Virus record (IMG/VR): IMGVR_UViG_3300042862_000096
Coordinates: 1-55,705 of that record
Origin: a virus
Taxonomy: Duplodnaviria; Caudoviricetes
Reading direction: 5' to 3' (one strand)
Length of the DNA: 55,705 nucleotides
The position numbers were made by a program, and so were the translations under genes. The notes below the pieces were generated by a model. The model did not search any database. It was not told the origin of the DNA and saw nothing but the letters and a program-made list of their open reading frames with translations. Positions within the stretch are counted from its first letter, which is position 1; each line of letters opens with the position of its first letter. Shown piece by piece: positions 8,976 through 40,934 of the stretch.

Positions 8976-10420
8976 TACAACCTCCTTCTATAACTAACGC
9001 TACCTGCGAGTGCTGCAGTAGTAGCAGACTGAACTGCTATACCACTTACAATAACTGCGGCAACGATTGTCTGTTCTGACTCAGAGCGTTCTTCGTCAGA
9101 CATATCTGCTCCGATACTGCTTATAGCCAATAGAGCCTGAGCAGGGTCAGAAAAAATAGTACTAAGTAATTCTACTGGACTCTCTAATATAACTAACGCT
9201 GCGGCAACTTCAGCAATTACGATTACTTCATTTCCATTTGAGTCTTGGCGTACTTCAACAGGCGTGGAAGGTGGAAGATCGGCTAAAGTAATTCCTGCTT
9301 CAGCAATAGCCTCAACTGTTACTGCTTCACCTTCAGCAGATTCAATTAAGGCTTCAGCGACTAATTCCCTCTCAGATTCAGTGAAAGTTCCATCTTCGCT
9401 TAATTGCTCTGAAAGGTTATTAACTTCAGTTTGGGTGATTTCTCCGTCTTGAGATAAGGCTTCTAGTATCTCTATAGAGTCTTGAGCCGTAACTACTCCG
9501 CCCATTTCTAGGTTCTCTACTAAAGTTTCTAGTTCTGCAACTGTTATCGGTTCTAGGTTTTCTTCTATTTGGGTGATAGGCTCTTCATTAACGATAGGAG
9601 TATCAAGTGGTTCTTCTGACTGACTTTCTGGCTCTATTTCTGGTATCAGTTGTTCTGGGTTTTCTGGTATGGAAGGTTCAACAACAGGAACAAGTACCTC
9701 AAGTTCTGAAACCAATTCTTCGGGCAACTGTTCTACTGGTGGTTGTATCGTGGTTATTGGCTCTGGGCTTGTATCTATCACAATAATCTGAGGAGGAATA
9801 TATGGAATTACTATCTCTGGTGTTATCACTGGTTGCTCTACTGGAACAACAGGTGGCACTACTACTGGCTCTACTGGTTCGGTAGGTTCAGGTGTCACTG
9901 GGTTTTGGTTTTCTGATGGGTCTTCTGGCTGGGGCTGTGGCTCTTGCGGTGTTGGCTCTACTTCTGGAAGATTGATTAAATTACTACTTAAAGTATAGGT
10001 TCCAATAGGTCTTTGATTGGCAACTATAAAGTCGTAAGAAGTTGCTCGTATAGTGTAAATGTCGGGAGTTAGAGTTCCGCTTAATCTAGAAGCATAATAA
10101 TTGGTTTGGGTATTGTGGTTGCTATCGTCATCTTGTGCAATTACTGTTCCACCCTCAACTGCCACACCACGATATAAACTAATCCATGAATCTACCCATG
10201 CTTCCCTTTCAACTGTTACTGAATTAACTACTTCAGTGCGTGGTCCAGTAGTCGTTTCAATTACATATTCAGTAGGAGTTACTACCTCAACTACTGTATC
10301 TACGAAGGCTATCTCGGGAGTTAAGGTAATAGTAATTTCATCAGCGAATGCTACAACTGGGGTCAGGGTCAGCCAGCCCACTATAAAGGCAACTGAATAG
10401 TATTTGTTGAATCTTAGCAA
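8975..10420 (-). CDS. Secreted/membrane-anchored acidic Pro/Glu-rich protein with PPC-like N-terminal domain
   Basis: Signal peptide (..VAFA|DE); DSWISLY..AQDDD..SRL..TLTP..YTIRATSY; PE-rich stalk; C-terminal hydrophobic segment followed by RRR. Confidence 0.65.
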   Translation of the reverse strand: MLRFNKYYSVAFIVGWLTLTPVVAFADEITITLTPEIAFVDTVVEVVTPTEYVIETTTGPRTEVVNSVTVEREAWVDSWISLYRGVAVEGGTVIAQDDDSNHNTQTNYYASRLSGTLTPDIYTIRATSYDFIVANQRPIGTYTLSSNLINLPEVEPTPQEPQPQPEDPSENQNPVTPEPTEPVEPVVVPPVVPVEQPVITPEIVIPYIPPQIIVIDTSPEPITTIQPPVEQLPEELVSELEVLVPVVEPSIPENPEQLIPEIEPESQSEEPLDTPIVNEEPITQIEENLEPITVAELETLVENLEMGGVVTAQDSIEILEALSQDGEITQTEVNNLSEQLSEDGTFTESERELVAEALIESAEGEAVTVEAIAEAGITLADLPPSTPVEVRQDSNGNEVIVIAEVAAALVILESPVELLSTIFSDPAQALLAISSIGADMSDEERSESEQTIVAAVIVSGIAVQSATTAALAGSVSYRRRL

Positions 10421-10507
10421 GTAAGCACCCCTTGTTAATTAAGGATTTCTTACCTATTATCGCATTATCTGGTTACTAATTACTGCTGTAAAAATTGACT
10501 ACCTTGA

Positions 10508-11020
10508 TTAAATATCTAGTGAACTCTCAATACCAAGTTCTCTAATGGTTTCTGGGATTTCGGTATAAGCATTTTGAATAACCTGATCTACATTCATTCT
10601 ATAAATTTCTAAACCAGAAATTTTATCTAGAGCACTCTCATATTTATTGACCCCAGATTGTATCTTTGCTATTTTTTCCTGTCCTTTAAGTTTTTTAGCA
10701 CTCATAAAATCTTTTGTTGCTCCCTCTACATTTACTCTAGCAGAATTAAGTGCTTTTATTTGTACCGCATTATCGGCACGCTCTCTTAAACCTTCTAATT
10801 CATCTACGAGGCTAATGCTTGCGTCACGCATTTGATTAGATACTTCATTACCAGTTTTATCTATAAACTCATTAGACATCATTGTATTAGGTTTAGAATT
10901 TCCGCCACCTGCACCACTTCCGCCTTTACCACCACCTCTTCTTCCATGTGATAACTGGTTATGGCTTCCGTGTTTAAGAACTTCCTGTCCTAAGCCGTGA
11001 TCATTTAAGAATATGCCCAT
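10508..11020 (-). CDS. Hypothetical protein with KH..HNQ..H motif (possible internal head protein)
   Basis: VLKHGSHNQLSHGRRGGG, motif shared with the MuF fusion. Confidence 0.65.
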   Translation of the reverse strand: MGIFLNDHGLGQEVLKHGSHNQLSHGRRGGGKGGSGAGGGNSKPNTMMSNEFIDKTGNEVSNQMRDASISLVDELEGLRERADNAVQIKALNSARVNVEGATKDFMSAKKLKGQEKIAKIQSGVNKYESALDKISGLEIYRMNVDQVIQNAYTEIPETIRELGIESSLDI

Positions 11021-11023
11021 TAT

Positions 11024-11146
11024 TTACTCCGCTTTTTCTTTAGGAATCTGTATAACAATACTGGACTCAGATACAGCAACAGAGCAAGAGCACTCGCTCG
11101 AACAACAGGACGACTGCGGTAGGAATCTAAAATCTTTCTCATTCAT
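11024..11146 (-). CDS. Small Cys-rich hypothetical protein
   Basis: MNEKDFRFLPQSSCCSSECSC; fills the gap between neighbouring genes. Confidence 0.4.
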   Translation of the reverse strand: MNEKDFRFLPQSSCCSSECSCSVAVSESSIVIQIPKEKAE

Positions 11147-12758
11147 CGCTTTTCTTACCTTTGCTTGATAATGGGTGTGCTTCAGGTAGTAAGTCTGTAT
11201 CATACGCGCCTCTTTTGAATCTTCCATTACGCAACGCATGTAAAAATCCATTTACTCTAGCAAAAGCCCATTGTTCTTTACTTTGAACATTTGGACGAAC
11301 GGAAGATGGGTTGGTTTTATATGCCCCTATGCCTCTTCTGTAAACTTGAAGTAATGTTCCAGTAGTAGTTCTTTTGCCTTTAGCATCGCCTACTTCTTCA
11401 TTATGTTCTTTGGCTTTTTCTTCCAATGTGCTTTCAGTTGATTTCTCAATTTCTTTAAGTTTTTTAGGTGGTTTCATAATAGTATCTACATGAACCGCAT
11501 TGACACCGGGATCGCTTTTTTCTGCATCATCAGGTATATCAGTTCCTAATCTTTTTGCTTTACCACCAATAGAATATCCGCTTAGTTTGCCTGACTTAAC
11601 TAATTCCCATGCCCAGTCTTTCCACAATACTCCCATGAAAACTGTGTTGGCAGGATAAGTAAACTCTGTCTTCTTACCATCGGCTTTAGTTGTTGGAATC
11701 TTTAGTTCATAAGGGAAGGTCATCATCTCAACCCATTCACCTGCTACTACATCTCGGTTATGTTGTAAATGAATATTTCTATCGCCTGACTTTACGTAAT
11801 CCCATACAGCATTCTGCAATTCTTCTTCATCTGTCCACTCACTGTGGGCATCTAATTTATTAGGAATATACAGAGGTCCTAGAGTAAATTTCTTATCATC
11901 GGCTTTCATAAATGGTGCTAGATAATCAAAAGACTTATCAACTCTTTCTACTATTGATCTAGCCCAACTCTCAGCAGCATCGCCACCCCATGCGTCCCAA
12001 GCAACTCTTCCTCCAGATGGATAACCCTTTTCGCCTCGGTTAAAACCTTCTGCTTTCTTATCTGGTGTGTGTCTGGCTAAGAAAGAGCGCATACGCTTTA
12101 TTGTTCTTAAACTTACTGGTCTTCTTCCTGCTAATTGTGCTGCTCTTGCTCGACCTACATCAGTAAATCCCCCACCAGCCTTACCTTCACGAATCCAATT
12201 AAGTGCTCTCTTAGCATTTGTGGCAACTGAAGCAGGTGGAGTAAATGTATCTGACTCTGCAACCTTATCTACATTTTCTTTACTTGGATTAACAAGTATT
12301 TCTAATCCGTCTCCCCATAAACCAAAAGCAATTTTGAAATAATCTATATCGCCATCTTCCCATTTAACGATAATATCTTCAACTAATTCTTCTTCTCCGC
12401 TAAACAATTCCTCTAGTTCAGCACCATCTAAAGTAATCTCAGGATCAATAATTACTTCTTTCTCAAAGAACTCTTCACTGCTTAAGTCGTAGCCTCTTTT
12501 AGATAGTTCGGTAGTTATGTAATGATGAGAAGCCAGCATAGTAGCGTTCATTTCACTCTTGCTTAATTTCCCATGAAACGCTAATAGTGATTCAGTTGTT
12601 GCTTTCTGGATTACATCTGGGACATTGGCGTATAAAGCCCGAACATGTTTCGCTGCGTCTACCTTTGTGACATGGCAAGCGACTAACTCACCTGTGTCTG
12701 ATTTGACTACGGCAAATCCCGGACAACCTTTTACATTACTGGCTACTTTATACGGCAT
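11139..12758 (-). CDS. Multidomain prohead protease (XkdF-like) protein
   Basis: KFTLGPLYIP...DAH.E....EEL..A; HLQH; VKSGKLSGYSIGG; additional flanking domains. Confidence 0.75.
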   Translation of the reverse strand: MPYKVASNVKGCPGFAVVKSDTGELVACHVTKVDAAKHVRALYANVPDVIQKATTESLLAFHGKLSKSEMNATMLASHHYITTELSKRGYDLSSEEFFEKEVIIDPEITLDGAELEELFSGEEELVEDIIVKWEDGDIDYFKIAFGLWGDGLEILVNPSKENVDKVAESDTFTPPASVATNAKRALNWIREGKAGGGFTDVGRARAAQLAGRRPVSLRTIKRMRSFLARHTPDKKAEGFNRGEKGYPSGGRVAWDAWGGDAAESWARSIVERVDKSFDYLAPFMKADDKKFTLGPLYIPNKLDAHSEWTDEEELQNAVWDYVKSGDRNIHLQHNRDVVAGEWVEMMTFPYELKIPTTKADGKKTEFTYPANTVFMGVLWKDWAWELVKSGKLSGYSIGGKAKRLGTDIPDDAEKSDPGVNAVHVDTIMKPPKKLKEIEKSTESTLEEKAKEHNEEVGDAKGKRTTTGTLLQVYRRGIGAYKTNPSSVRPNVQSKEQWAFARVNGFLHALRNGRFKRGAYDTDLLPEAHPLSSKGKKSDE

Positions 12759-12767
12759 GGCTCTATT

Positions 12768-12902
12768 CTATCTGCTCTTGTCTTCGGCTTCGGTCTCGAC
12801 TTGATTTGATTCTTGTATTTCTTCTATTGTTTTAGCGACCTGTATTTTACCCTGCCCACGGATAATCTTGCCATCTTCGGGTTGTGCTATGAATCGTGAC
12901 AT
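12768..12902 (-). CDS. 44-aa protein, candidate immunity protein for the MuF toxin (not in ORF track)
   Basis: MSRFIAQPEDGKIIRGQGKIQ...; TGATG-coupled to the ART-encoding gene. Confidence 0.5.
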   Translation of the reverse strand: MSRFIAQPEDGKIIRGQGKIQVAKTIEEIQESNQVETEAEDKSR

Positions 12903-14833
12903 CATTTATCCATTCTCTGAAAAACTGCTACTGGTTTACCTTCTGTATCCGTAGTCGTGCTTATTCCTAAGAATAGTAGTGGAGTTTCACGAGGAAGTAA
13001 GACTTCTTTTTCTTTACCCCAAAACTCATCTCGCCCACTTCTCCCCCTGCTTGTTAAGAGTAAATCAACAGCAAGCCCTTTACCTGTTTTGCTTGGACTT
13101 GGAAGAATTACAGTTACAGTATCATCAGTAGGTGATAAGTTGCCTAATTGTTTTCTAGCAGACTTATTTGTTACAACATTTTTCCTTGTTGTACTTAAGA
13201 ATCCTTTGTCTATAAAAGTATCTCCGGGTTTCAAATCTGTGATAAGCCTATCGGAAGCAACTCTATAAAGAGTTTTATCACCGAAAGCATCTGGACTTTC
13301 TTCAATAGTTCTATCCAAAACACTTATCTTATTTTGCATGAAGTCATCGCTTTTTTGGCTACCTCTTGCCACAGCATTAATGCCCTGATAGCCAGCAGTT
13401 GCATAATCTTCAACTTGGAATTCTGAATTATCATTTTCCTCATTTTTTACAGAATATTTATTATCGTAAGCGACTGTTATTTTTTTCGTATCTTCTAAAC
13501 TTACATCATCTTTATCCCAAGAGCCATTCTGAAAAGAAGCCAAAGCACTGGCTGAAGCCTCGTATGACCCACTACCACTCCTTCTGCCTCCTGCGTGATT
13601 TTGCTGATTGTGTTGTCCAGGAGCATGCTTAGCAAATAACCAAGAGTTATCTGACTTCCTAAGTTTAGTTCCTAATCTAGCAAGTTTTCCATTACATGAA
13701 CGGCATAAGACTCTTAGGTTCTTCCTGTCATATTTAGCACCACCATCTTTTAATCTTTTCTTATGATCTACTGTTAGGTCTGATTTACTTCCACAACGCT
13801 GGCACTTGCCTATTCTATCTTTCATTTCATTGGCTATTTTGCGCCACTTGTAATCATAGTTTCGCCAAGTTTTTTCTCCGTCAGCAAATCTATAATATCT
13901 TTTCTCAACACTATTATCAAAGGTTGGCTCTGCTGGAACAATAACTGCGGTACATCTACAATTTGGGTGATTGGGTGGCATGACATCGCCAGTAGAAAAA
14001 ACACCTTCCCAATCTACTGTTACATTATTCAATGGTGCGCAAACTGGACATGTTCTTTCATCTGCTGCTGTTTTCCACCTCTTCTGGCTTCCTGCTGGAA
14101 GTAATCCTAATTGATCTGCTTCCGCCCAAGAAAGCATGCGACCAGCATTAGCAGCAGCAATAGTTTCTGTTCTGGCAATACGAGTAGCCCTCTGGATAAG
14201 TAATCTTTCACGATATTCTTTGCTAAGTTTAGTTACTATTTTTACTGCCTTCTCGTATGTTTCACCTTGCTCAATTAACTTAAGTAAGTTCTTTTCATAA
14301 AAGTTACCCAGTGCTTTTGCTTGTCTGGAATCTAAGCCAACTATTTGAGTAATATTATTTATTACTTCTTCTCTATTTATTTGTGTACTTAAACTTCTAG
14401 CAATAGTTTCAGCAACGGCTTTCTGAGTTTCTTGAGTAATTCCTAATATTCTTGCTCCTGCTCTCTGCTGTGCCCATGCTATTGCTCTTGGGTCTTGGGC
14501 AGTAAAAGAACTATCAAATCTAATATTCTTAGGCAAAGCAGCAGCACTTATATTTGCGGAAGCAGCAAGTTGTTGCGCTAACTTAGGAACTGTGCCATCT
14601 AGCGAAGAAACAAAGTCTCCCCACTCAAAAGCAACTGCACCAGCATTTGGACTTCTCGATTCTATTGCTCGCCTAACTGCTCTAATAACTTTTTCGTTAT
14701 CTAAATCTTTAGGCATAGAGGATAAAGCCTTAGAGTAAATATCAAAGATTTCTTGTTCGAACTTATTTAATTTTGCGGTTGGGCTACGAAGAACTGGGTC
14801 GTTTCTTTTTCTAGCCTTTATGACTAAAGGCAT
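12902..14833 (-). CDS. MuF (SPP1 gp7-like) minor head protein fused to HNH and ADP-ribosyltransferase domains
   Basis: RIARTE, KRW.T..DERTCPVC, PP.HPNCRC (MuF); CQRCG..LTVDH...NLRVLCRSCN (HNH); Y..IN..AR, LYR, GFLSTT, EKEVLLPR (VIP2/Alt-like ART, R-S-E). Confidence 0.85.
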   Translation of the reverse strand: MPLVIKARKRNDPVLRSPTAKLNKFEQEIFDIYSKALSSMPKDLDNEKVIRAVRRAIESRSPNAGAVAFEWGDFVSSLDGTVPKLAQQLAASANISAAALPKNIRFDSSFTAQDPRAIAWAQQRAGARILGITQETQKAVAETIARSLSTQINREEVINNITQIVGLDSRQAKALGNFYEKNLLKLIEQGETYEKAVKIVTKLSKEYRERLLIQRATRIARTETIAAANAGRMLSWAEADQLGLLPAGSQKRWKTAADERTCPVCAPLNNVTVDWEGVFSTGDVMPPNHPNCRCTAVIVPAEPTFDNSVEKRYYRFADGEKTWRNYDYKWRKIANEMKDRIGKCQRCGSKSDLTVDHKKRLKDGGAKYDRKNLRVLCRSCNGKLARLGTKLRKSDNSWLFAKHAPGQHNQQNHAGGRRSGSGSYEASASALASFQNGSWDKDDVSLEDTKKITVAYDNKYSVKNEENDNSEFQVEDYATAGYQGINAVARGSQKSDDFMQNKISVLDRTIEESPDAFGDKTLYRVASDRLITDLKPGDTFIDKGFLSTTRKNVVTNKSARKQLGNLSPTDDTVTVILPSPSKTGKGLAVDLLLTSRGRSGRDEFWGKEKEVLLPRETPLLFLGISTTTDTEGKPVAVFQRMDK

Positions 14834-19156: not shown

Positions 19157-19288
19157 TTAATTCGACCACCATTTATGTGCCACAAAAATAATATAAAACC
19201 TCAGGAATTGAATAGTAAGACTTTTATCCCAACTATGGAATTGAATTGCTATCCCCCAGTTATCTGTCACACCCTTAAAAACTTTCAT
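19157..19288 (-). CDS. 43-aa hypothetical protein (not in ORF track)
   Basis: [24 protein letters not shown]...; fills the gap between neighbouring genes. Confidence 0.4.
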   Translation of the reverse strand: MKVFKGVTDNWGIAIQFHSWDKSLTIQFLRFYIIFVAHKWWSN

Positions 19289-20924
19289 TTGTATCTCTCT
19301 CTACTATAGTTTTCGTATCAACAAAATATACCGCATCTAGGGTACTTTCGCTCAAGGTTTGTATTGCCTCGTCTTTAGTTTGAACTAAAGGCTCTCCAGC
19401 AAGATTGAAACTTGTATTAAGTAACATAGGACACCCTGTTTTTTCATAAAAGCCTTGAAGTAGGTCGAATAGAAAGCCTTCTTTGACTGTTTGTATTCTG
19501 CTTGTATTATCTACATGAATAATTCCGGGCACGAGGCTTATTGCCGACTCTTTTGCATCAAAGTTTACTGTCATATATTCTGATGAAGAAAGACCTAAAG
19601 TAACGAAATACTTATCGAATTCTGACTCTAATATAACTCCAGCAAAAGGTCTATACCATTCCCTTTTTTTAATTTTATTGACGATTGCCTTACAGTCCTT
19701 ATTTCTTGGGTCGAAAAGAATTGACCTATGACCTAACGCCCTTGGACCAGCCTCAGGACTGCCATCGAAAATGGCTAAACTCTTTTGATTGATTAACAAG
19801 TCTACTAAGTGTTCCATATTTGGCACTCTTTCACCAAAAGTTCTAAGGTCTAGGTCATAAAAATGAAAAAAGTTATCCTTTAATTTTTTAGGTCGCTTGC
19901 CTGTTTCCATAACATATTTCATCATAGCGGCACCAATAGGCACACCTGTATCATCGGCTACTGGTTCGAAATAGAAAGTAACATCTTTCATGTTTTTAAG
20001 ATAGAAGTTATTAGCGACTACATTTAATCCATAACCACCAACGAGGCAAACATTACGGACTTTGGTTTTCTCTACATGATATTTAATCAACTCTAAAACT
20101 GCTTCTTGGGTATCGATTTGAACTTGCTTAGCCAAGTTTGCGTACTCTAAGTAGTTTTGATTATCTATATCAGAAGTTATTTTATCTTCTTTTTCAAAGA
20201 AGCAAACAGGGTAAGAATCAGTAAATAATTCAGCCCTTGCAACGGACTTATGAAAGAGTTTATAGTTATCGTTGTAAGTTCCATAAGAGGAAAGCCCCAT
20301 AGTTTTTCCATTTTCTAAAGGGTTTTGCCCGATCATAGTTGTAGCCGACTCATAGACTTTAACAATGCTCAAAAAATTATTGAGAGTAACTTTTGTGTCA
20401 AGATAAAGAACTTCTAAAGACTTTAGAACTTTTAGCCGTTTAGAAGACATATCAGGCATAAGCCAAAAGTTTTTCTGTAAAGGTTTTAGAAAGTTATTTT
20501 TATCGCATAAATATACAGACTCTGACTCTCTAGCAACTTCTTTATCCTCAGCAAAAATTATAGAGCCATTTCGGTCAATAACAAAAACTAAGCAACTTTC
20601 AAACCCGCTATTAAAGTAGGCAAGGTTGGCATGTGATTGATGATGAGTTAGTGCCGAGAAATTCTCTAAAGGCACATTAAAAGTTTTTTCTATATAACGG
20701 CTATAAACAGTTTCAATACCGAGTTCATTGTTATCTGGTACTGTATAGAGCGCATGGTCTAAAGGTCCTGCTAAATTTGCTTTCAATAATTCTAAAGATT
20801 TGAAGGGGTGCTTGTCTCTCTTTTTTCTAGAGATTCGTTCTTCCTTACAAAAAAACTCAATTTCGCCATCATTTAATACACATACAGAACTATCATGGGC
20901 TATATTAAATGCTAGTATTCTCAT
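19275..20924 (-). CDS. Carbamoyltransferase (NodU/CmcH family)
   Basis: [64 protein letters not shown]. Confidence 0.93.
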
Positions 20925-23823: not shown

Positions 23824-24610
23824 GTAATGGTCTCTCTTTTCTTCCTAAAGTAATCGGCTTCAAGCGAAGATTCACTACTCCTCCTGCTTTAATCTGTATT
23901 GAAGATAGGTCTGGATATCTTTCTTGTACCCAACGCAATTCTGAAGCATGTCTATCTTTTCTCACATCTCCATCTTCTGTTACGCAAGCATCTATACCGC
24001 CTGAAGCAAAATACTTGGTCTTTGGGCATAAGAATTCTAGGCGAACAACGCAACCATATCTAGTAAATCCTCTAAGAGTTGAATGGTGGTCTTCTCCTGT
24101 TGGGGTCATGCGTCTTTCAGGATCGCAGAATATCCAGTCTTTAGCATAAGTTCCCATGAAGTTAGCACATATATATCGAAGTCCTACTGAAATATGGTCT
24201 TTTAAGAAGAAGTGGTTCATGGTTGGGTTAATACCCCACTGTCTTGCTCCCTGTTCTTCTGCTGTTGAGAAACCTATCTCTGCTATCTCGTCGAGTTGGT
24301 ACCGTGTTGGTACTAGTTTCTTATCTCCAAGTTCTAGTAAATCAGACATATCATCATCAATGCTTAATAGTCTTTCATTTTCAGGAAACCAGTTGTGGTA
24401 AAACTTTCTTTGGGTAGATATACCACGCACGCCAACAACAATGCGGTAATCGTCTTTTAATACAGACCGATAGAGTTCTTCTTGCTCTTCATTAGCGACA
24501 AAGACATGAACCTTATCTTTATCTACTTTCAGGCGTTCTAAAGTTGCTAGAGTTTGATCTCGGCAAATCTCTGCTCGCTGGTAAGAAGGAACTACTACTT
24601 GATACTTCAA
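23807..24610 (-). CDS. TET-associated glycosyltransferase (GT-A fold)
   Basis: VPSY.RA, R....N, IDDD, ED, GG motifs; directly downstream of TET/JBP-like gene. Confidence 0.78.
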   Translation of the reverse strand: MKYQVVVPSYQRAEICRDQTLATLERLKVDKDKVHVFVANEEQEELYRSVLKDDYRIVVGVRGISTQRKFYHNWFPENERLLSIDDDMSDLLELGDKKLVPTRYQLDEIAEIGFSTAEEQGARQWGINPTMNHFFLKDHISVGLRYICANFMGTYAKDWIFCDPERRMTPTGEDHHSTLRGFTRYGCVVRLEFLCPKTKYFASGGIDACVTEDGDVRKDRHASELRWVQERYPDLSSIQIKAGGVVNLRLKPITLGRKERPLHGLAN

Positions 24611-25527
24611 CCAACCTTAAACGGAGTATCACCTTTGAGAGCAGAAGCCAGTCCTGTTTCTCGTTCTGTTCTCCGTTTCCTCGCTTCTTTCTGTTCAACT
24701 GCGAATGAGAAGCAGTCTTTCATGCCTCTTAAGCAGTAATAAACAACTGTGTAGCGGTAAGAATCTTTCTGAACATGTGCTATCGGAGTAACTCCGTGAA
24801 GGTATCTGTATCCTGGAAAGAATAAACACCAACCATCTCGGCACTCAATAACTAAATCGTATTCGGGCATACTTAGGTAACCACCACGAGTACCTCTTCT
24901 AATTACTGGCATAGCAGACCACATATCAAAGTTGTTGCCGTCAAAGTGGTATGGAAGGGTTGAGGTTTTATTAATAACTCCGCTAGTCCAAAGACTTCGC
25001 TCGCTTAATCTCCACTCATCTGCTACTGCTGCTGTTTCGGTTACATCTGCATTGTATACATCAGGAATTAACTCTTTAATAATATCTGCTAATACATCTG
25101 CTGTTCTAGTTAGAACATCATGCTCTTCGGGTTGGTCATAAGATAATGCTGTTGGTCGGCATGCTTCTCTAGTTTGAAATGGTTTGCGTGGCGCCATACC
25201 GAAAGTTCTTGAATGATTTTCTACACCAGTTGATTGTCTAGTTACACCTGATGAAGAATACTTAATTGAACGAACTGCTTTTCTAAGTTCTGGAATTACT
25301 GCTTCTGGTAGAGGCATGTAAACTAAGAAAGGTTCATTGGTGTCTGCATCAACATAGATTCCAGCCTCTTTGATATTTGCTTCTAACTCTGGAACATCTA
25401 CACCTTTAAGTTCCTTAGTTTTACTTCTATCAAAAACTCTTTTGACTGGTATTACATCTAAATCTTTAATCACTTGGTGCCTCTGTTCCAGTCGCTTCCG
25501 CAACTGCTCTAATAATGGCGTCCCCAT
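24607..25527 (-). CDS. TET/JBP-like 2OG-Fe(II) DNA base oxygenase
   Basis: WTSGVIN...YHFDGNN, GG.L..PEY, HGVTPI, R..VVYY. Confidence 0.78.
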   Translation of the reverse strand: MGTPLLEQLRKRLEQRHQVIKDLDVIPVKRVFDRSKTKELKGVDVPELEANIKEAGIYVDADTNEPFLVYMPLPEAVIPELRKAVRSIKYSSSGVTRQSTGVENHSRTFGMAPRKPFQTREACRPTALSYDQPEEHDVLTRTADVLADIIKELIPDVYNADVTETAAVADEWRLSERSLWTSGVINKTSTLPYHFDGNNFDMWSAMPVIRRGTRGGYLSMPEYDLVIECRDGWCLFFPGYRYLHGVTPIAHVQKDSYRYTVVYYCLRGMKDCFSFAVEQKEARKRRTERETGLASALKGDTPFKVG

Positions 25528-34923: not shown

Positions 34924-35913
34924 CTACGCAGTTAGCAAAGATTGCGCTTTATCTTTGAACTTTTCAGTACCGCCTAGAATTATTCTTTCGGCACGAAGTT
35001 CATCTTTGCCTTCTTTACTTCTTACTGGCTTAGCCCAATCTGACCACTCTACAACAGCGTTGTAAGCAGCCCACTTTGTGCCAGCAATATTGCTTTGCGT
35101 TGGTGCTTTCCACAAAGCAAATAGTTCATTTCGCTTTTGCTCAAATGAGTTCTCAGCCCTCTTGGTTAATTCACCCTTTGGCTCAGGCACTAGAACTTCA
35201 ATGAACTTCTTGTATTGCGTATCTGTGAACTTCTCAGATAGCAACTGCTCAACCTCTTGCTGAAAAGCCTCTTGGTATTTGAACACTATACCTAGAGTCT
35301 CTCTTGCGTGTTGAACTTTGGCAGTAGCACCAGAAGTATGCTTCAGAGATATCTTAGACTTTGCAGAAGCAAGTGCTAAGCGAACTGTGTTTGTGCATAC
35401 TGCTCTGATAGGTGTTACGGCAACAGTGAAGGAAGATGAACCATCGTGGCTATTAACAGCCATAATATAGTTATCTACTACATCTGCCCCATTGGCTAAC
35501 TTCATAGAGTCAGGGAACTTCATAGTCATGAAAACACGACCACCCTTCTTCAATGAACCAGCAGTTTCGAATCTAGCACCCGACTCATCAGCAATAAGGT
35601 TTAAGAAATCAAACGCCTCACTGTTTTGAATTGGTGTATATCGATTACCAACTACACCCAACGCAGCCATTCCTGACTTTGGGTGATTACGATAAGTAAG
35701 AAACTTATCTTGTAGTGTGATTGTTTTACCATCAACAACTGTGCTGATAGGTTCTTCACTTACTTTTACTGGCCACTCTAACTGCGCAGTTTTAAGTGCG
35801 TCTTGTGCAGTTAAGGCATTCGGTGTAATTTCACCGAGTTTATGCCAAGCGACTTCTCGATTAGAGAAGAACGCACTAGTGCCATCAGCAAATTGCTCTA
35901 TTTCATGAGCCAT
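34924..35913 (-). CDS. DUF932/DUF945-family protein
   Basis: MAHEIE, AWH.LG, LGVVG.RY..IQN.EAF, FETAGSL..G..VF, NSHDG, RAVC.NT, HTS. Confidence 0.85.
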   Translation of the reverse strand: MAHEIEQFADGTSAFFSNREVAWHKLGEITPNALTAQDALKTAQLEWPVKVSEEPISTVVDGKTITLQDKFLTYRNHPKSGMAALGVVGNRYTPIQNSEAFDFLNLIADESGARFETAGSLKKGGRVFMTMKFPDSMKLANGADVVDNYIMAVNSHDGSSSFTVAVTPIRAVCTNTVRLALASAKSKISLKHTSGATAKVQHARETLGIVFKYQEAFQQEVEQLLSEKFTDTQYKKFIEVLVPEPKGELTKRAENSFEQKRNELFALWKAPTQSNIAGTKWAAYNAVVEWSDWAKPVRSKEGKDELRAERIILGGTEKFKDKAQSLLTA

Positions 35914-35941
35914 TTACTTTACCCTTTCTTCTTTTCTGACG

Positions 35942-35996
35942 AGGCTCGTCAGTAGTGGCAATTACCACTAGACCCTACTTTCGTAGGGTTTCGCCT
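35942..35996 (-). ncRNA. Type II hammerhead ribozyme HH5 (cleavage between 35971 and 35970)
   Basis: AGGC GAAA CCCUAC GAAA GUAGGG UC/ UAGUGG UAAUUG CCACUA CUGACGA GCCU: full core, three closed stems. Confidence 0.95.
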
Positions 35997-36190
35997 TAAT
36001 TAACTTCAACCCATTCCATGGCAACACGAAGTAAATTATCGTAGTCGCCAGACATTGAAGCATTGCTGTATTCATCTATCTGTTCTTTTGTTGCTCCTGC
36101 TCTTCTGAGAGCAGACCTAACTGATCCCATTATCGCGAAAGCATTTCCGTCATTTCCTGTAAGTTGAACTGTTGTATTGAACTTAGGCAT
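35996..36190 (-). CDS. Conserved small phage protein
   Basis: V.L.G.DGNAFAIMG.V..AL..AG...SGDYDNLL; GAAAGGGTAAAT RBS. Confidence 0.8.
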   Translation of the reverse strand: MPKFNTTVQLTGNDGNAFAIMGSVRSALRRAGATKEQIDEYSNASMSGDYDNLLRVAMEWVEVN

Positions 36191-36212
36191 ATTTACCCTT
36201 TCTTTGTTCTGA

Positions 36213-36277
36213 AGAACTCATCAGCGTAGTCATTTAACTACGGACGCCCAACCGAAACCGACTGGGCGTTTCGTTCT
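36213..36277 (-). ncRNA. Type II hammerhead ribozyme HH4 (cleavage between 36243 and 36242)
   Basis: AGAAC GAAA CGCCCA GUCGGUUUCGGU UGGGCG UC/ CGUAGU UAAAUG ACUACG CUGAUGA GUUCU. Confidence 0.95.
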
Positions 36278-36545
36278 ATCTTTTTTGTTTGAGATGCTCT
36301 TCAACCATTTCTTTCATTTGTATTTTAGTGGCTGAGTTATTAAGTTCCTTAGCCATTTCTATACATAGTTTGTATGAATCAGAAACGAAAACAGGTCTAG
36401 TTGGAACACCTGCGTTCATAAACTTCTGAAACATTTTCCAGTCAATAACAAAAGACTGACCTGAACTTATCCAGTCTTTTCTTACACAAGCATCGCCGTA
36501 GTATCCACCGGACTGGCATGCGATAAATGAGTTTGTATTAGACAT
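36276..36545 (-). CDS. Hypothetical early protein
   Basis: ORF in early operon; its stop codon overlaps HH4 stem II. Confidence 0.65.
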   Translation of the reverse strand: MSNTNSFIACQSGGYYGDACVRKDWISSGQSFVIDWKMFQKFMNAGVPTRPVFVSDSYKLCIEMAKELNNSATKIQMKEMVEEHLKQKR

Positions 36546-36858
36546 GTTGATTTACCTTTCCGTGGGCGTTCCACCAAGTCTTGGCGAAGTCCAATGTTCT
36601 TTCATTGAACTGGTAGCACCACTTCTGCGTATGTGTATGATGGCAACTTCTATCTTGGTTACCTGAGTAGATAATTACTTTGCCACCATATTTATTTATT
36701 TCCATCATTATGTTTTCAGCAGGGATACCCCAGTCAAGTAGGTTGCCTACCCACTCTCTTACTCTGTCTTGTCTACAAGGTAAGCAAGGGCACTTGTGTT
36801 CTGTTTGGTGAGTTGCAACTTTAACTGTCATAAGTTCTGCTGCTGAACCTCTTTTCAT
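36538..36858 (-). CDS. Hypothetical early protein (Cys/His-rich)
   Basis: CPCLPC; translationally coupled ORF. Confidence 0.65.
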   Translation of the reverse strand: MKRGSAAELMTVKVATHQTEHKCPCLPCRQDRVREWVGNLLDWGIPAENIMMEINKYGGKVIIYSGNQDRSCHHTHTQKWCYQFNERTLDFAKTWWNAHGKVNQHV

Positions 36859-37064
36859 TATTTCCTCACCTTCAGTATTGCGTAAGAGCCACCCTTATTT
36901 AACTCTTCAAGAATTGGCTCTAGTTTTGGAACTAGTAAATCACGGACCATTTGACTTAGCAGTGAGTGCCTTAATTCAATTGGCAGTGCTAGTATCCTTT
37001 GACATGTTATATGTTTGTCGTCTAGTATCATTTCTAGTTTGATGCTGTGCTCTATTGTTGTCAT
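36858..37064 (-). CDS. Hypothetical early protein
   Basis: GAAAGGGTAAATAA RBS. Confidence 0.65.
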   Translation of the reverse strand: MTTIEHSIKLEMILDDKHITCQRILALPIELRHSLLSQMVRDLLVPKLEPILEELNKGGSYAILKVRK

Positions 37065-37080
37065 TTATTTACCCTTTCAG

Positions 37081-37215
37081 TTAGTCACTCATTGATTCGT
37101 CATACATGCGGTCAGGATCTTCCTCACCGCATTTACATTCTTGTTCATCGCAATCAGCACAAGAATATAAACTTAGTGCTGCTGGGTCACCATGAAGCCA
37201 TTGTGGTTCAGACAT
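37081..37215 (-). CDS. 44-aa Cys-rich peptide (not in ORF track)
   Basis: MSEPQWLHGDPAAL..CADC..ECKC..DPDRMYDE. Confidence 0.6.
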   Translation of the reverse strand: MSEPQWLHGDPAALSLYSCADCDEQECKCGEEDPDRMYDESMSD

Positions 37216-37381
37216 TAGGCTTCACCTCGTCACTTACATATCCTTCTGCTAATAGTCCATCTAGTAAATCGTGAACCATTAACAAGCCCTTTTGAACTTC
37301 TGAGCCATCTTTGAAATAACGGAGAGAAGTGTTTATTGCTCCCCCCATTTTTTGTATATCTTCATACTTATATCCAAGCAT
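37208..37381 (-). CDS. 57-aa hypothetical protein (not in ORF track)
   Basis: MLGYKYEDIQKM...DLLDGLLAEG. Confidence 0.6.
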   Translation of the reverse strand: MLGYKYEDIQKMGGAINTSLRYFKDGSEVQKGLLMVHDLLDGLLAEGYVSDEVKPNV

Positions 37382-37404
37382 TATCTTTCTCCCGTCTATT
37401 GAAG

Positions 37405-37854
37405 TTATTCATCTTCAATCGTAATGTTGGACCATTCACAGTCTTCATTAGTTAGTTCACCTACACCATTGTAAGAAAGATCGATACTGATATCGTCCTC
37501 GCTTACCTCTTCGTCTAAGGCACATTCAACAGTTAAGTTGTATTCAACTGTTATTTGAACTGTTACCTCTTTAGTTAAGGTGATGTCCAGTTCAGCAGCC
37601 AGTTCTTTTAGTTCATCTACTGTTGCTGAATCATCATCTTTGACATGTTCAAGTATGAACGCTTTAACATAACCTAACTGTTGGTTAAGTTTTGCATTTC
37701 TTTCTTTTGAAGATTCAAGTTGCCTCTCTAGGGAATCAACTGAATTACTGTACTTAACTAACTCTGCCACTATTTCATCAGTGGCGTGATCTCTAACGAA
37801 CTCATCAGCAATTGCTTCTACTGTTGGCTCGTCTATTTGTGTTTCTGTTGTCAT
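37405..37854 (-). CDS. Acidic coiled-coil early protein
   Basis: GAAGGGTAAATC RBS; follows HH3. Confidence 0.7.
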   Translation of the reverse strand: MTTETQIDEPTVEAIADEFVRDHATDEIVAELVKYSNSVDSLERQLESSKERNAKLNQQLGYVKAFILEHVKDDDSATVDELKELAAELDITLTKEVTVQITVEYNLTVECALDEEVSEDDISIDLSYNGVGELTNEDCEWSNITIEDE

Positions 37855-37880
37855 GATTTACCCTTCATGTTTCTAACGAT

Positions 37881-37935
37881 TGGCTCGTCAGTATCGGCAT
37901 TTACCGATAGACCCTGCCGAAGCAGGGTTTCGCCA
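37881..37935 (-). ncRNA. Type II hammerhead ribozyme HH3 (cleavage between 37910 and 37909)
   Basis: UGGC GAAA CCCUGC UUCG GCAGGG UC/ UAUCGG UAAAUG CCGAUA CUGACGA GCCA. Confidence 0.95.
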
Positions 37936-38361
37936 TTAGTAATCAGATATGTTTGAGTACTCTTTCGCAGCAACTAAAGCCATGTAGTAAGTTCCTTGAA
38001 GTAGGTCACTATCAACATTGTTTTTAACTTTAGTAATTCGCTTGAACCAAACGCTGTATTTCTCATCACTTACATTGGTGGTTATACCAATACGACGAGC
38101 AATATCTAGCGGAGAATAATAAACAGGAACTAGGGTCTGTTCATTAGTTATAGAACTCTTGACTGACTTGTTGATATATGCTCCGTCAAGTTTTTCAAGC
38201 ACTTTAATTCGGGCATAAGTATCAGCCCAGTTGGTAACTTTGATTTCACCAATGCCTACTGCCATCATTAGCCAAATCATTTGCTCAGTCATAGCCTTGT
38301 GTTCATCAGACCATAAACTTTCATGCTCTTTGCACTTAGTTATATCCCATGATAGTGCCAT
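37936..38361 (-). CDS. Hypothetical early protein, flanked by HH2 and HH3
   Basis: GAAGGGTAAATAA RBS; MAL.WDIT.C, IG..TNV. Confidence 0.7.
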   Translation of the reverse strand: MALSWDITKCKEHESLWSDEHKAMTEQMIWLMMAVGIGEIKVTNWADTYARIKVLEKLDGAYINKSVKSSITNEQTLVPVYYSPLDIARRIGITTNVSDEKYSVWFKRITKVKNNVDSDLLQGTYYMALVAAKEYSNISDY

Positions 38362-38381
38362 TTATTTACCCTTCTTAATCT

Positions 38382-38434
38382 GAACTCGTCAGCGTTGGCG
38401 TTTACCAACGGACTGCCCGAAGGCAGTTTCGTTC
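38382..38434 (-). ncRNA. Type II hammerhead ribozyme HH2 (cleavage between 38411 and 38410)
   Basis: GAAC GAAA CUGCC UUCG GGCAG UC/ CGUUGG UAAACG CCAACG CUGACGA GUUC. Confidence 0.95.
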
Positions 38435-38439
38435 TTTGA

Positions 38440-38769
38440 TTAATTGCTTATTTCTTCATATTCGAGAATATCCCAACCACTCATTGCACAACCATAAGCA
38501 CGACCATCTAGCACTACTTCGTCACCAACGCTTATAGCAGTATGACTTCTGTTTTCAGGCATTTTTCCGTCAAGGAATAACTTCCATATTGCACCTTGAT
38601 ATAAATTGGTGCACTCGAACAGATATTCCAACCAGACCATGTCGTCACCATCAAGTTCGTAATGGTCAGTTGGAACTTCGAAGGTCATTTCAGCATTACC
38701 TATCTTGCCATTTGCAGCAAGAGCAACTGCTTGGTGTTTGAAAGCAGTCCATTTGATTGTTATTAACAT
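38440..38769 (-). CDS. Hypothetical early protein
   Basis: R.HTA.SVGD.V......Y.C...GW motif; GAAAGGGTAAAT RBS. Confidence 0.7.
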   Translation of the reverse strand: MLITIKWTAFKHQAVALAANGKIGNAEMTFEVPTDHYELDGDDMVWLEYLFECTNLYQGAIWKLFLDGKMPENRSHTAISVGDEVVLDGRAYGCAMSGWDILEYEEISN

Positions 38770-38820
38770 ATTTACCCTTTCATTAGTTAGTGAATCAGCG
38801 ACAGCCGAATCACGATTTAG

Positions 38821-39000
38821 TTAGTTAAGCGAACCATTTTCCATAATGAAATCGCTTGCTCTTTTCTTTGCTTCTTCTCTCGTAACATATTTATAGACTT
38901 TAGAACCCAGTGATAAATCACCAATACTGGCTCTGACCATAACTGAGTAATCAGTCTTTATGATTACCCATTCAATGTCTTTCAGGTTTAACTTACCCAT
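38821..39000 (-). CDS. 59-aa hypothetical protein (not in ORF track)
   Basis: MGKLNLKDIEWVIIK...; fills the gap and overlaps the upstream stop. Confidence 0.55.
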   Translation of the reverse strand: MGKLNLKDIEWVIIKTDYSVMVRASIGDLSLGSKVYKYVTREEAKKRASDFIMENGSLN

Positions 39001-39199
39001 TACGCTTAACCCCTATTTCATATTCTTCAATATCAGAAGCCCAGTTGCCACCGATACCACTTATTTCATTAGCGATATCTTTAGCAGTTTCTATATCGCC
39101 TTCTCGGATTGCTTTCTTTAGTTGAGGTAGTATCGCTTTGATATACCTCATGTCTGTATTGACTGACTTAACAGTCAAGTCACCTATTTTTTTAGCCAT
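38993..39199 (-). CDS. Hypothetical early protein
   Basis: GAAAGGGTAAACC RBS. Confidence 0.65.
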   Translation of the reverse strand: MAKKIGDLTVKSVNTDMRYIKAILPQLKKAIREGDIETAKDIANEISGIGGNWASDIEEYEIGVKRNG

Positions 39200-39221
39200 T
39201 TGGTTTACCCTTTCAGTTGGT

Positions 39222-39440
39222 TTATGAACGACCTGAAGACCTTCCGTTCTTCAAGTCGGGACTATCTTTATGAACTATTGTGAAACCTTGCTTCGGCACT
39301 AGCATTAGCCGATAATTTTCTCTGCCTGTAACTCCATTGGTTGATAAGCAATCTCGTTTCATGCAGTAGTAGTAACCCAGTTCCCATCTTCTTGGATCAA
39401 CTGGGTCGTTGCAATAAATGCAATAATTCTCGCTAGACAT
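39222..39440 (-). CDS. Small Zn-finger protein
   Basis: CIYC..PV..RR.ELGY..C...C. Confidence 0.7.
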   Translation of the reverse strand: MSSENYCIYCNDPVDPRRWELGYYYCMKRDCLSTNGVTGRENYRLMLVPKQGFTIVHKDSPDLKNGRSSGRS

Positions 39441-39446
39441 GATTCC

Positions 39447-39560
39447 TTAGTTACTTTCCATTAGAACTTCTAGTGACTGCTCTTTGTAGCATTTTTTACA
39501 AACAAGAGTGGAGTCAAAGAAAGTAACTGGAACTTTACAGCACTTAGATAATCCGTTCAT
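39447..39560 (-). CDS. 37-aa Cys-rich peptide, first ORF after HH1 (not in ORF track)
   Basis: MNGLSKCCKVPVTFFDSTLVCKKCYKEQSLEVLMESN; GAAAGGGTAAACA RBS. Confidence 0.65.
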   Translation of the reverse strand: MNGLSKCCKVPVTFFDSTLVCKKCYKEQSLEVLMESN

Positions 39561-39583
39561 TGTTTACCCTTTCGTTTTCAGAC

Positions 39584-39643
39584 AGACTCATCAGTTACGG
39601 CGTATACCGTAAGACACGCAACAGGGTGCTGCGTGTTTCGTCT
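39584..39643 (-). ncRNA. Type II hammerhead ribozyme HH1 (cleavage between 39613 and 39612)
   Basis: AGAC GAAA CACGCA GCACCCUGU UGCGUG UC/ UUACGG UAUACG CCGUAA CUGAUGA GUCU. Confidence 0.95.
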
Positions 39644-39644
39644 T

Positions 39645-40266
39645 ATATAATTAATTGCACAACTTTCTACCGCAAGATAGTTAGTTGATATGTTTGATTT
39701 ACTTTTGAAAGTCATTCGTCGTAGGTCTAATCTTTTTACCGTTGCGACCGGAACTACTTTTATCACTCGCTCTTTTGCTAATGGAACTAGCAATGTCATC
39801 GCGAAAGTAATTTCCTCACCTAGAACTGGCTATATCGTCGTATTATTTTGATTGACCGAGTAGTAGTCTGTAAATTGAATCAGTCTTGTTAGTTTCGATT
39901 TTACGAGCACCTGAATTACTGGAACGATTCAGGACGCCGAGACCCTTTACAGGTTTTCCTCTGACTATCCCTTCACTATTTAATTATCAGGTAATAACCT
40001 TTTCTGTCACCTTAAGAAGTTCCCTAGGGATTTAATGACTTCTTAAGTTCACCAGAGTTTTATCCCTGACCGTAGTTTTTTCACTTTTGAGTTTTGCCCC
40101 TAAGGGATTCTGAAAACCCAGCCGTGCCTACCCCTTAATCCTACTACATCTTGACCCTGTATAAAAGACGGCGAGGGGAGCCGACCTGCTTTGGGTATAT
40201 GGCAAGCCCTACAAGGAAGCCTCTAGGAAGCCTTTTGCGACCCTTTATTACAGGTCAGGTAGTTAT
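39645..40266. ncRNA. ~620-nt ORF-poor, highly structured region (candidate large ncRNA or leader)
   Basis: Stems at 39775-80/39788-93, 39910-16/39927-33, 40011-20/40038-47 and 40143-56/40253-63, several nested. Confidence 0.45.
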
Positions 40267-40473: not shown

Positions 40474-40618
40474 AGTATCCCTATCTTTAGTTGTAATTGC
40501 GGTAGCATTTATATCAGAGAACGACAGCCGAATACAAGTTTACACACTAATATTCTAACATTCCTTAAGTAATTTGATAACATATAACAACCTGACGTCA
40601 CATATCCCAGACGCAGGT

Positions 40619-40672
40619 CTAAGACCGAGTTGATACCCCTCTGTCCCAAGAGGTGTGGTTCCTCGGTCTTAG
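40619..40672. promoter_or_regulatory. Hairpin with 11-bp perfect outer stem in the divergent intergenic region
   Basis: CTAAGACCGAG...CTCGGTCTTAG, inner CCTCT/AGAGG; ATATCCCAGA direct repeats at 40602 and 40741. Confidence 0.55.
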
Positions 40673-40760
40673 TTATTTCAAAGAAATAGTATAGATTTGG
40701 TCTTTATGTCTTGCTTATATGTAATTGATTCGCCATACTTATATCCCAGAAGGAGGCGAT

Positions 40761-40934
40761 ATGAGTAGAGCCGACCATGCTGGATTCGTTCATGACTGTT
40801 TAGCCAAGTTATCAGAGTTAGACCAACAGATAAATATGCTAGACCCTGAAATACACCAAGAGAAGATTGCTTACTTACGTGAGCAAACTCTTAGAATACA
40901 GTTATTAGCAGATAAACAATTAGCGACTATATAA
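40761..40934 (+). CDS. Small hypothetical protein, divergent from XRE
   Basis: AAGGAGG RBS before ATG at 40761 (MSRADHAG...). Confidence 0.65.
   Translation: MSRADHAGFVHDCLAKLSELDQQINMLDPEIHQEKIAYLREQTLRIQLLADKQLATI

Follow-up and report, generated by a model that had tools for sequence, protein, structure and literature searches.

A clade-conserved array of type II hammerhead ribozymes in the early region of an uncultured lake phage, with a probable role in transcript processing

Here, we describe five small elements with the organization of type II hammerhead ribozymes on the minus strand of IMG/VR virus record IMGVR_UViG_3300042862_000096, which represents an uncultured lake phage and was analyzed over its full 55,705 bases (completeness estimate ~92%; hereafter, the window). 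The minus strand carries nearly all long frames of the window, and matches to PHROG families identify a tailed-phage gene set (terminase, portal, major head protein, tape measure, tail protein, and endolysin), together with RecT-like and exonuclease recombination genes, a queuine tRNA-ribosyltransferase-like gene, and a carbamoyltransferase. Along the minus strand, the region that contains the elements consists of the endolysin gene (41442-40927), a divergent intergenic region, a gene encoding a Cro/C1-type helix-turn-helix (HTH) protein, a leader poor in open reading frames (ORFs), about 14 small genes, a DUF932 gene, and the recombination genes. The elements, denoted HH1 to HH5 in the order in which they follow one another on that strand, and the features around them are listed in Table 1.

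Table 1. Hammerhead elements and associated features of the early region. Positions are those of the window; MFE, minimum free energy; R1, our own covariance model, whose scores are circular for the five elements from which it was built.
Feature	Position	Strand	Remarks
HH1	39584-39643	minus	predicted cut after C at 39613, 3' product from 39612; MFE -22.4 kcal/mol, z -3.98; 64.5 bits (R1)
HH2	38382-38434	minus	predicted cut after 38411, 3' product from 38410; z -2.13; 66.4 bits (R1)
HH3	37881-37935	minus	predicted cut after 37910, 3' product from 37909; 75.8 bits (R1); RF02276 34.6 bits, sub-threshold
HH4	36213-36277	minus	predicted cut after 36243, 3' product from 36242; 63 bits (R1); Rfam: 3' half only, type III-like partial match
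HH5	35942-35996	minus	predicted cut after 35971, 3' product from 35970; z -4.56; 73.3 bits (R1)
HH3 anti-core tail, UCGUUAG	37873-37879	minus	pairs with CUGACGA at 37891-37885, 7 pairs including one G-U; predicted alternative fold 4.1 kcal/mol better than best core-free fold
HH5 anti-core tail, UCGUCAG	35936-35942	minus	pairs with CUGACGA at 35952-35946, 7 pairs; predicted alternative fold 4.6 kcal/mol better than best core-free fold
Spacer with GAAAGGGUAA Shine-Dalgarno-like box, HH5 to DUF932 start codon	35914-35941	minus	box likewise between ribozyme and start codon in related loci
Equivalent spacers, HH1 to HH4	39560-39583, 38362-38381, 37855-37880, 36191-36212	minus	
DUF932 / phrog_1221 gene, first gene past HH5	34924-35913	minus	PF06067, E 1.5e-62; anchor for finding relatives
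ORF-poor leader, ~620 nt, between Cro-like gene and HH1	39644-40266	minus	no convincing frame
Cro/C1-type HTH gene, 68 codons	40267-40473	minus	Pfam HTH_19, HTH_3, HTH_26; head of early transcription unit
Divergent intergenic region, upstream of Cro/C1-type HTH gene	40480-40760		

All five elements share one layout, in which a stem II strand ending in C is followed by GAAA, the stem III hairpin, GUC, the stem I hairpin, CUGA(C/U)GA, and G with the other strand of stem II, and each contains the complete canonical core (C3-A9, G12-A14, C17, and the A15.1-U16.1 and G10.1-C11.1 pairs). Stem II is open and stems I and III are closed, which is the type II permutation. The corresponding pattern, CGAAAC..GTC..CTGAYGAG, was matched five times in the window, in each case on the minus strand, and not once in any of 100 dinucleotide shuffles. 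The three-way junction is the MFE fold of every element taken alone (z scores from -2.1 to -4.6), and the numbers of shuffled sequences that folded as well as the native one were 0, 6, 0, 0, and 0 of 200 each for HH1 to HH5. Mean column identity among the five copies is 67%, with the invariant columns confined to the core, the GUC site, and a few positions of stem I and loop I; the ribozyme loop I (GGUAAAUG and similar) resembles the Shine-Dalgarno-like box of the early genes. When R1 was run on the whole window with the filters off, the five elements scored 63-76 bits, values that are circular for these copies, and nothing else exceeded 16.5 bits, so that there is no sixth copy; the match with that score, at 37798-37834, lies inside a coding frame, lacks the helices, and was dropped. 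The initial annotation of this DNA had placed five hammerheads with the canonical core and type II permutation on the minus strand, and all of them are confirmed at the positions it gave. It had also described stem I as a hairpin of 6 bp; the hairpin stands, and its size is better read as 7 pairs with a U-G closing pair and a 4-nucleotide (nt) loop.

The elements are packed closely between genes. The gap from the upstream stop codon to the ribozyme is 5 nt for HH2, which sits between a 109-codon and a 141-codon gene, and 0 nt for HH3, which starts immediately past the stop codon of the latter, and HH4 and HH5 overlap the preceding stop codons by 2 and 1 nt (gaps of -2 and -1 nt), in agreement with the earlier observation that four of the elements begin at or within 5 nt of an upstream stop. 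HH1 follows no stop codon: it ends the ORF-poor leader, within a doubtful 73-codon frame that has no homolog in the related loci described below. The predicted cuts of HH1 to HH5 lie 52, 49, 55, 52, and 57 nt ahead of the next ATG, and both these distances and the first bases of the 3' products (Table 1) match the original counts. HH1 is followed by a block of 5 small genes, HH3 by 6 genes, HH4 by a 64-codon gene, and HH5 by the DUF932 gene. The predicted cuts thus bound unequal blocks of 5, 1, 6, and 1 genes and then DUF932 with the downstream operon, and no ribozyme is present at the 11 other gene junctions of the region, so that the regular array standardizing every mRNA that had been envisaged is not supported. 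Among the longer gaps in the small-gene block, the one at 38770-38820 (minus strand) is alone in lacking a hammerhead; it holds a short imperfect hairpin ahead of the usual GAAAGGGUAA box. The Shine-Dalgarno-like box of the early genes, (G)AAGGGUAA, is itself unusually uniform, lying 4-8 nt before the start codons of genes with or without a ribozyme (35914-39583 in the window, and loci L006-L015).

Relatives were sought by searching viral contigs with the DUF932 protein as the query. Of 165 pattern-matching stretches, 157 encode a relative of this protein, and 80 loci (928,365 bases) were kept. In these loci, R1 with default filters produced 33 matches at E-values up to 1, 32 of which scored 31.9-73.3 bits. 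These 32 further copies are all located on the gene strand and all in the 10 closest loci (L006-L015; DUF932 protein identity 59-95%), and no copy was found with the same filters in the other 70. The intergenic placement seen in the window, for which the initial annotation had pointed to a survey of related phages, recurs in these loci: the ribozyme mostly starts between -2 and +5 nt from the upstream stop codon and is followed by a 15-30 nt tail with a GAAGGGUAA-type box ahead of the start codon, and, across the window and its relatives, the predicted cut lies ~49-59 nt before a start codon preceded by GAAGGGUAA. A stop codon, ribozyme, tail, ribosome-binding site, and start codon in this order constitute a fixed module, which is new here. 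A ribozyme stands ahead of the homolog of the 149-codon gene in 8 of the 11 sources and ahead of DUF932 likewise in 8 of 11. The whole records of five relatives (98-100% complete; four with terminal repeats) contain 2, 2, 3, 4, and 4 matches, in a search that found 4 of the 6 copies detected by cmsearch in L015, and in each record all matches fall within at most 2.6 kb, inside the early-region loci L007, L008, L011, L013, and L015. The array is accordingly conserved in a clade of at least 11 records and confined to the early region, which is also new here.

The helices of these copies are maintained by compensatory change. In an alignment of 37 sequences (34 distinct), 97.2% of 580 cells pair, compared with 64.3% in shuffles; changes on both sides of a pair occur in 14 of the 18 pairs; and, when the 3' partners were shifted by 1-3 columns as a control, pairing dropped to just 29-44%. 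The alignment was fitted to the model, which favors structure; despite this, an effect of such size, together with the slid controls, makes the structural conservation hard to doubt. The A15.1-U16.1 pair is present in 33 of 33 alignment rows and the G10.1-C11.1 pair in 32 of 33, and the core is intact in all but one (L014:3930) of the 32 related copies, with the L006 copy 5'-truncated and represented by its 3' half only. Judging from these sequence comparisons, the five elements are true type II hammerheads whose structure is under selection, and the combination of an invariant core with stems that vary freely yet pair argues for selection on catalysis rather than on hairpins. The original proposal that differing but pairing stems reflect selection on activity is borne out to this extent.

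Two related copies deviate at the active center. The one at L014:3930-3984 has a variant core, CCGAUGA (U4C), and an A-A mismatch at the 10.1-11.1 pair, and is either decaying or a low-activity variant of the kind discussed by Perreault et al. (PMC3088659). In the other, at L009:6250, the predicted cut falls after GUA.

A scan of viral contigs for the core pattern yielded at least 119 stretches, 80 of which are listed (L086-L165). Among the 79 listed loci in which the pattern was found again, 68 have one copy, 9 have two, 1 has three, and 1 (L096) has six. The latter contig, 125,690 bases long, comes from a large phage that is unrelated to the present one; its six type II pattern matches lie on one strand within 4.3 kb (7264-11598), with very similar stems III and with tails that contain GAAGGGAG-like boxes; apparently, this is another array, with copies that were duplicated more recently. 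Arrays of this size are therefore not unique to the phage described here.

A second feature of the clade concerns the bases that directly follow stem II. In many copies, a tail that starts 0-3 nt past stem II is complementary to the catalytic core CUGAYGA, and its sequence depends on the core, being AUCAG or CAUCAG where N7 is U and CGUCAG or UCGUUAG where N7 is C. In the window, the longest such tails are those of HH3 and HH5 (Table 1), HH2 and HH4 have marginal ones (4 pairs; a difference of 0.4-1.2 kcal/mol), and HH1 has none. Across the clade, the motif U[CU][AG]G is found 3-16 nt past the core in 24 of 32 distinct copies, compared with a mean of 3.2 and a maximum of 8 in 500 tail shuffles. 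Where N7 is C, the opposing base is G in 9 copies and A in 1; where N7 is U, it is G in none and A in 6 (Fisher p = 9e-4, uncorrected for shared descent: many copies are orthologous, and the independent events are fewer than the counts). An earlier tail statistic, which counted helices of at least 5 pairs from C3, pairs N7 by construction and was discarded in favor of this test, conditioned on the 4-bp motif. A sample of unrelated viral contigs shows no overall enrichment of the anti-core motif (15 of 97; shuffled mean 8.8, maximum 21), so that the motif characterizes a subclass rather than type II hammerheads at large; the motif-bearing copies of that sample obey the same N7 rule (10 G and 0 A for C, against 1 G and 3 A for U; p = 0.011). 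No description of a core-sequestering hammerhead tail was found in the literature, in a search outside which lay most subscription journals and the supplementary alignments and figures of PMC3088659, the last of which could show such tails.

Another type of tail exists in the same clade. Judged by eye, four copies (L014:6318-6378, L015:6770-6831, L015:7156-7216, and L015:8995-9056) have large loops I of 8-14 nt that are complementary to the bases just past stem II, which is the classical type II pseudoknot, and lack the anti-core tail, so that both tail types coexist in one genome. Two copies in L010 and L013 also have, by the same inspection, tails able to pair with loop I, and in all six copies at least 4 such pairs can form.

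The reading that we favor, and consider probable, is that active type II hammerheads self-cleave and thereby process one early polycistronic phage transcript between gene blocks. It is the best reading because the elements are under structural selection, because they lie in one co-oriented early region downstream of the Cro-like gene, and because a scan of the minus strand from 41500 to 34500 detected no terminator-like site. Under this scenario, an early transcript of the rightward type would start near the Cro-like gene, at ~40.5 kb, and run down the minus strand as a single unit, and each ribozyme, packed between a stop codon and the next ribosome-binding site, would cut itself after GUC. 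The upstream product would terminate at the stable stem III hairpin and carry a 2',3'-cyclic phosphate, the downstream product would start with a 5'-OH right at the stem I hairpin, and the two would separate at once because stem II, at 4-5 bp, would be the sole link between them. After cleavage, the tail would fold back on the freed core in most copies of the clade, and strongly in HH3 and HH5, forming a second, stacked 5' hairpin that would block religation and leave the GAAGGGUAA ribosome-binding site single-stranded. The operon would thus be cut into a leader (the Cro-like gene and the ORF-poor stretch) and five pieces, comprising 5 genes, 1 gene, 6 genes, 1 gene, and DUF932 onward, and the defined structured ends of each piece may uncouple the stability and expression of a block from those of its neighbors. 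General knowledge of RNA decay suggests that the 5'-OH ends may be protective and that such processing may be independent of host RNases. As an account of the region, the self-processing early operon of the initial annotation therefore survives as the best reading, without the novelty, the regularity, or the fast RiboJ-like insulation that it had attached to it.

Several observations weigh against this reading. Rfam at its gathering score found nothing in the whole window, neither a hammerhead nor a twister, pistol, hatchet, or other known ribozyme, so that the check originally suggested, a search with the Rfam hammerhead models, succeeded in part only: in a sensitive scan, HH3 alone was identified as Hammerhead_II (RF02276), at 34.6 bits against a gathering cut-off of 37, and the other four were unreported as such at E-values up to 10. 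In most type II hammerheads, loop I forms a pseudoknot with the bases that directly follow stem II, a tertiary contact that serves fast cleavage at cellular Mg2+ (PMC3088659). By eye, none of the five window copies shows such a pseudoknot of at least 4 pairs; loop I of HH1 and HH5 can pair with AU-rich bases upstream of stem II, possibly by chance, and this pairing is absent from the other three. When 18 nt of native tail are included, four or more core bases are paired in the predicted MFE fold of 26 of the 33 distinct copies. The tail fold surpasses the best core-free fold by 2 kcal/mol or more in 18 of the 33, and by 4 kcal/mol or more in 10, HH3 and HH5 among them; with the full 5' untranslated region (UTR), the advantage of the alternative fold reaches 7.1 and 5.6 kcal/mol for these two. 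The predicted lowest-energy fold of HH3 and HH5 with their native tails is thus an inactive hairpin that sequesters the core, and, as the tail directly follows stem II, the kinetic window before it forms would be very short, so that the tail may inhibit cleavage. With such folds and no evident loop I pseudoknot in the five copies, the fast RiboJ-like insulation proposed earlier is not supported. Single-unit transcription likewise gains little from site scans, which returned 11 promoter-like sites against 15.7 expected from shuffles and 3 terminator-like sites against 3.8; the promoter-like site at 40580-40552 is a consensus match only.

RNA data also cut both ways. Assembled contigs were available from four lake-water metatranscriptome runs, each of a different study, and contain 5-20% of the words sampled from the stretch with which they were compared; placed at 90% likeness, they are of low depth, 150-315 nt long, and partial in cover, they do not span genes informatively, and, being assembled, they cannot show RNA ends. 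Some contigs end 10-12 nt downstream of predicted cuts, at 37897 (X1) and 37899 (X3) for HH3, 38398 (X2) for HH2, and 39601 (X1) for HH1. The ends on the HH3 side come from two studies and have no loose end there, and the one on the HH1 side is reached via a loose end of 17 letters at 39584, whose sequence corresponds to a different HH1 variant. Other contigs end at the 5' edge of a ribozyme (39645, 39642, 38431, and 35993), not at a cut. Altogether, 9 of the 54 listed piece ends lie inside or within 2 nt of the five elements, which make up ~5.5% of the stretch, where ~3 would be expected. None of the 27 listed contig pieces spans a ribozyme, but several bins are uncovered, so that this is no evidence of cleavage. 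At low depth, the contig ends are a weak hint of cleavage, and assemblies may also break at these positions because the ribozyme stems vary among strains.

In a rival account, which we regard as possible but rather unlikely, the ribozymes are gated or attenuated. The tail would form before cleavage, most transcripts would remain inactive, and cutting would be partial or conditional, with Mg2+, temperature, pausing of the polymerase, or ribosome traffic at the adjacent stop codon as the condition. Instead of cutting constitutively, the array would then determine how much of the mRNA is processed and how much stays polycistronic, or when processing takes place. The folding energies given above are in line with this, although nearest-neighbor energies omit the tertiary stabilization of the hammerhead core, and the strength of the tail varies, from none in HH1 to the marginal 4-pair tails of HH2 and HH4. 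The position of the tail immediately past stem II and its covariation with N7 also fit, and in L014:3930 the variant core is matched by a variant tail, GUCGG, so that core-tail pairing is kept, which points to selection on the helix itself; the same covariation is, however, equally explained by a hairpin formed once the RNA has been cut. Finally, the ribozymes lie within -2 to +5 nt of a stop codon, and, going by ribosome footprints in general, a ribosome terminating at an abutting stop codon would cover stem II and part of stem III. Regulated cleavage of phage hammerheads was raised as a possibility by Perreault et al. (PMC3088659).

Far less plausible is the idea that the hammerheads mark mobile or recombining cassettes, each consisting of a ribozyme, a 5' UTR, and a small gene and using the core and the ribosome-binding-site boxes as short homology, or that the excised RNAs are circularized, with RNA processing being secondary. 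The gene content between ribozymes is indeed mosaic among relatives: in L007-L009, the homolog of an 89-codon gene abuts DUF932 with no ribozyme, whereas the window has HH4, the 64-codon gene, and HH5 in between. Ribozymes at one junction also resemble those at others, as stems II and III of HH2 of the window recur in the copies that precede DUF932 in L013 and L011, and the L010 copy resembles HH4. The blocks of homology are just 7-10 nt long, however, and neither the strict retention of the catalytic bases nor pairing in three helices is needed for recombination. Circular or spliced products were named as a possibility by Perreault et al., who did not detect them (PMC3088659); no joints were seen in the RNA contigs, which provide poor cover, and neither an RtcB-type ligase nor a reverse transcriptase was found in the window, a record that is ~92% complete. 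The least probable alternative by our estimate is that the elements do not cut, being intergenic hairpins that act as 3' stabilizers, RNase III or RNase E sites, or pause sites, or else decayed hammerheads, for which one could cite the two GC-rich hairpins per element, the lack of an evident tertiary contact in the five, and the inactivity in vitro of 4 of 18 consensus-conforming hammerheads (PMC3088659), against the intactness of all 11 core positions and of the A15.1-U16.1 and G10.1-C11.1 pairs in 5 of 5 window copies and all but 1 of 32 related ones while the stems vary freely.

A broader interpretation, which we offer as speculative and on balance doubtful, is that the tail helix defines a subclass of conformationally switched type II hammerheads, residing in portable cassettes that run from a stop codon through the ribozyme and 5' UTR to a start codon. 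Cleavage would be either gated or made irreversible by the tail, and the cassettes would be units for the acquisition and independent expression of small early genes beside DUF932. This small-gene context resembles anti-restriction regions.

Other features of the window were recorded alongside the array. The segment at 40480-40934 forms a divergent control region, with a small plus-strand gene (~40762-40934) that has a strong AAGGAGG ribosome-binding site opposite the minus-strand Cro-like HTH gene, a layout that recalls a lysis-lysogeny or early switch. Within the ORF-poor leader, a non-coding segment at 39971-40161 (minus strand) shows 87-89% nucleotide identity to L007-L009 and weaker similarity to L010-L012, and is better conserved than the adjacent proteins. 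It contains a long covarying hairpin, with compensatory changes in the stem and an invariant loop that includes the palindrome UCCCUAGGGA, and had no match in Rfam. The summed depth of the metatranscriptome contigs peaks beside this segment, at 39675-40048; the segment may function as an RNA or, at the DNA level, as a site such as an operator or origin.

Farther away on the minus strand, a 643-codon head-morphogenesis protein similar to SPP1 gp7 by PHROG (12902-14833) matches HNH endonuclease families in its middle part (residues ~307-392). The queuine tRNA-ribosyltransferase-like gene (24607-25527) and a Nol-like carbamoyltransferase gene (19275-20924) together hint at a possible modified base of the 7-deazaguanine type in the phage DNA. 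For the frame at 11139-12758, the PHROG label of RNA ligase was dropped, as Pfam identifies it as an XkdF-type protease. A 4.5 kb nucleotide query had no match among 50,697 phage records in distant mode, which may leave out near-identical records.

The clade offers a compact natural test case, with four complete genomes bearing terminal repeats and 2-6 ribozymes each in one early region, with orthologous junctions that do or do not contain a ribozyme, and with copies that have strong, weak, or no anti-core tails. At stake are whether phage hammerheads are constitutive processors of mRNA or switches, whether the tail is a lock on the product or a throttle on the cut, and whether natural modules of ribozyme and UTR insulate expression in the manner of synthetic RiboJ parts. 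As the type II model of Rfam misses four of the five copies, phage annotation probably underestimates the number of arrays of the small-loop subclass. We consider three points worth following: the tail that pairs with the core, the fixed module at the junctions, and the restriction of the arrays to the early region throughout the clade.

The kind of array described here has been known since 2011, and the present elements are further members of it. Natural type II hammerheads were discovered by Perreault et al. (2011, PLoS Comput Biol; PMC3088659), who reported clustered prophage hammerheads flanking genes or short gene blocks, including a triple arrangement around ardA in Agrobacterium tumefaciens and further cases in Azorhizobium caulinodans and Clostridium scindens; the initial annotation, which knew of no characterized array dividing an operon, is superseded on this point. 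The same paper proposed that long phage transcripts are processed into operon- or gene-length mRNAs, and it documented cleavage at all sites during in vitro transcription of ~2 kb polycistronic fragments from three bacteria and cleavage of the Agrobacterium arrangement around ardA in E. coli. Reviews repeat the processing proposal and call the biological role open (PMC6155905; PMC6765202). Like the clusters in that paper, the elements of the window are several one-strand hammerheads, type II included, that flank single or small blocks of co-oriented phage genes. The available part of its text gives no counterpart to several features found here: five copies within 3.7 kb of a free phage contig, a clade-conserved array with a fixed junction module, a small loop I (4-6 nt) with no clear pseudoknot, and a tail that pairs with the core (PMC3088659).

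Three type II hammerheads of Desulfovibrio vulgaris cleave in vivo, with 5'-OH and 2',3'-cyclic-phosphate ends mapped by cyPhyRNA-seq (Olzog et al., 2021; PMC8782182). They are of the same type as those of the window and adjoin phage-like, hypothetical, and HTH genes, two of the copies lying ~300 nt apart. Unlike the present elements, they occupy loci on the host chromosome with at most two neighboring copies, and the part of the article cited describes neither an operon array nor a tail helix.

The Rfam family Hammerhead_II (RF02276, clan CL00010) has the same core, permutation, and three helices, and HH3 aligns with its model end to end (positions 1-66); the model also has a longer loop I and a pseudoknot-forming 3' tail (AGCC), whereas loop I is shorter in the window copies and no such tail is evident in them by eye. 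Synthetic insulators of the RiboJ type consist of the sTRSV hammerhead, which is type III, and a downstream hairpin that does not pair with the core. In T7 early mRNA, the cuts between cistrons are made by RNase III, a host protein enzyme, and leave a 5'-phosphate and a 3'-OH. The function of both is analogous to that proposed here, as cutting before a ribosome-binding site or between cistrons yields a structured 5' end independent of the upstream context. Certain viroid hammerheads are active only transiently, since the alternative fold of the mature RNA sequesters the core and protects the circular genome. Dimeric and alternative folding of hammerheads is touched on in a review (PMC6155905). 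The predicted competing fold of the window copies sequesters the core in a similar way, but here the element lies in the 5' UTR of an mRNA of a DNA phage, not in a circular replicon.

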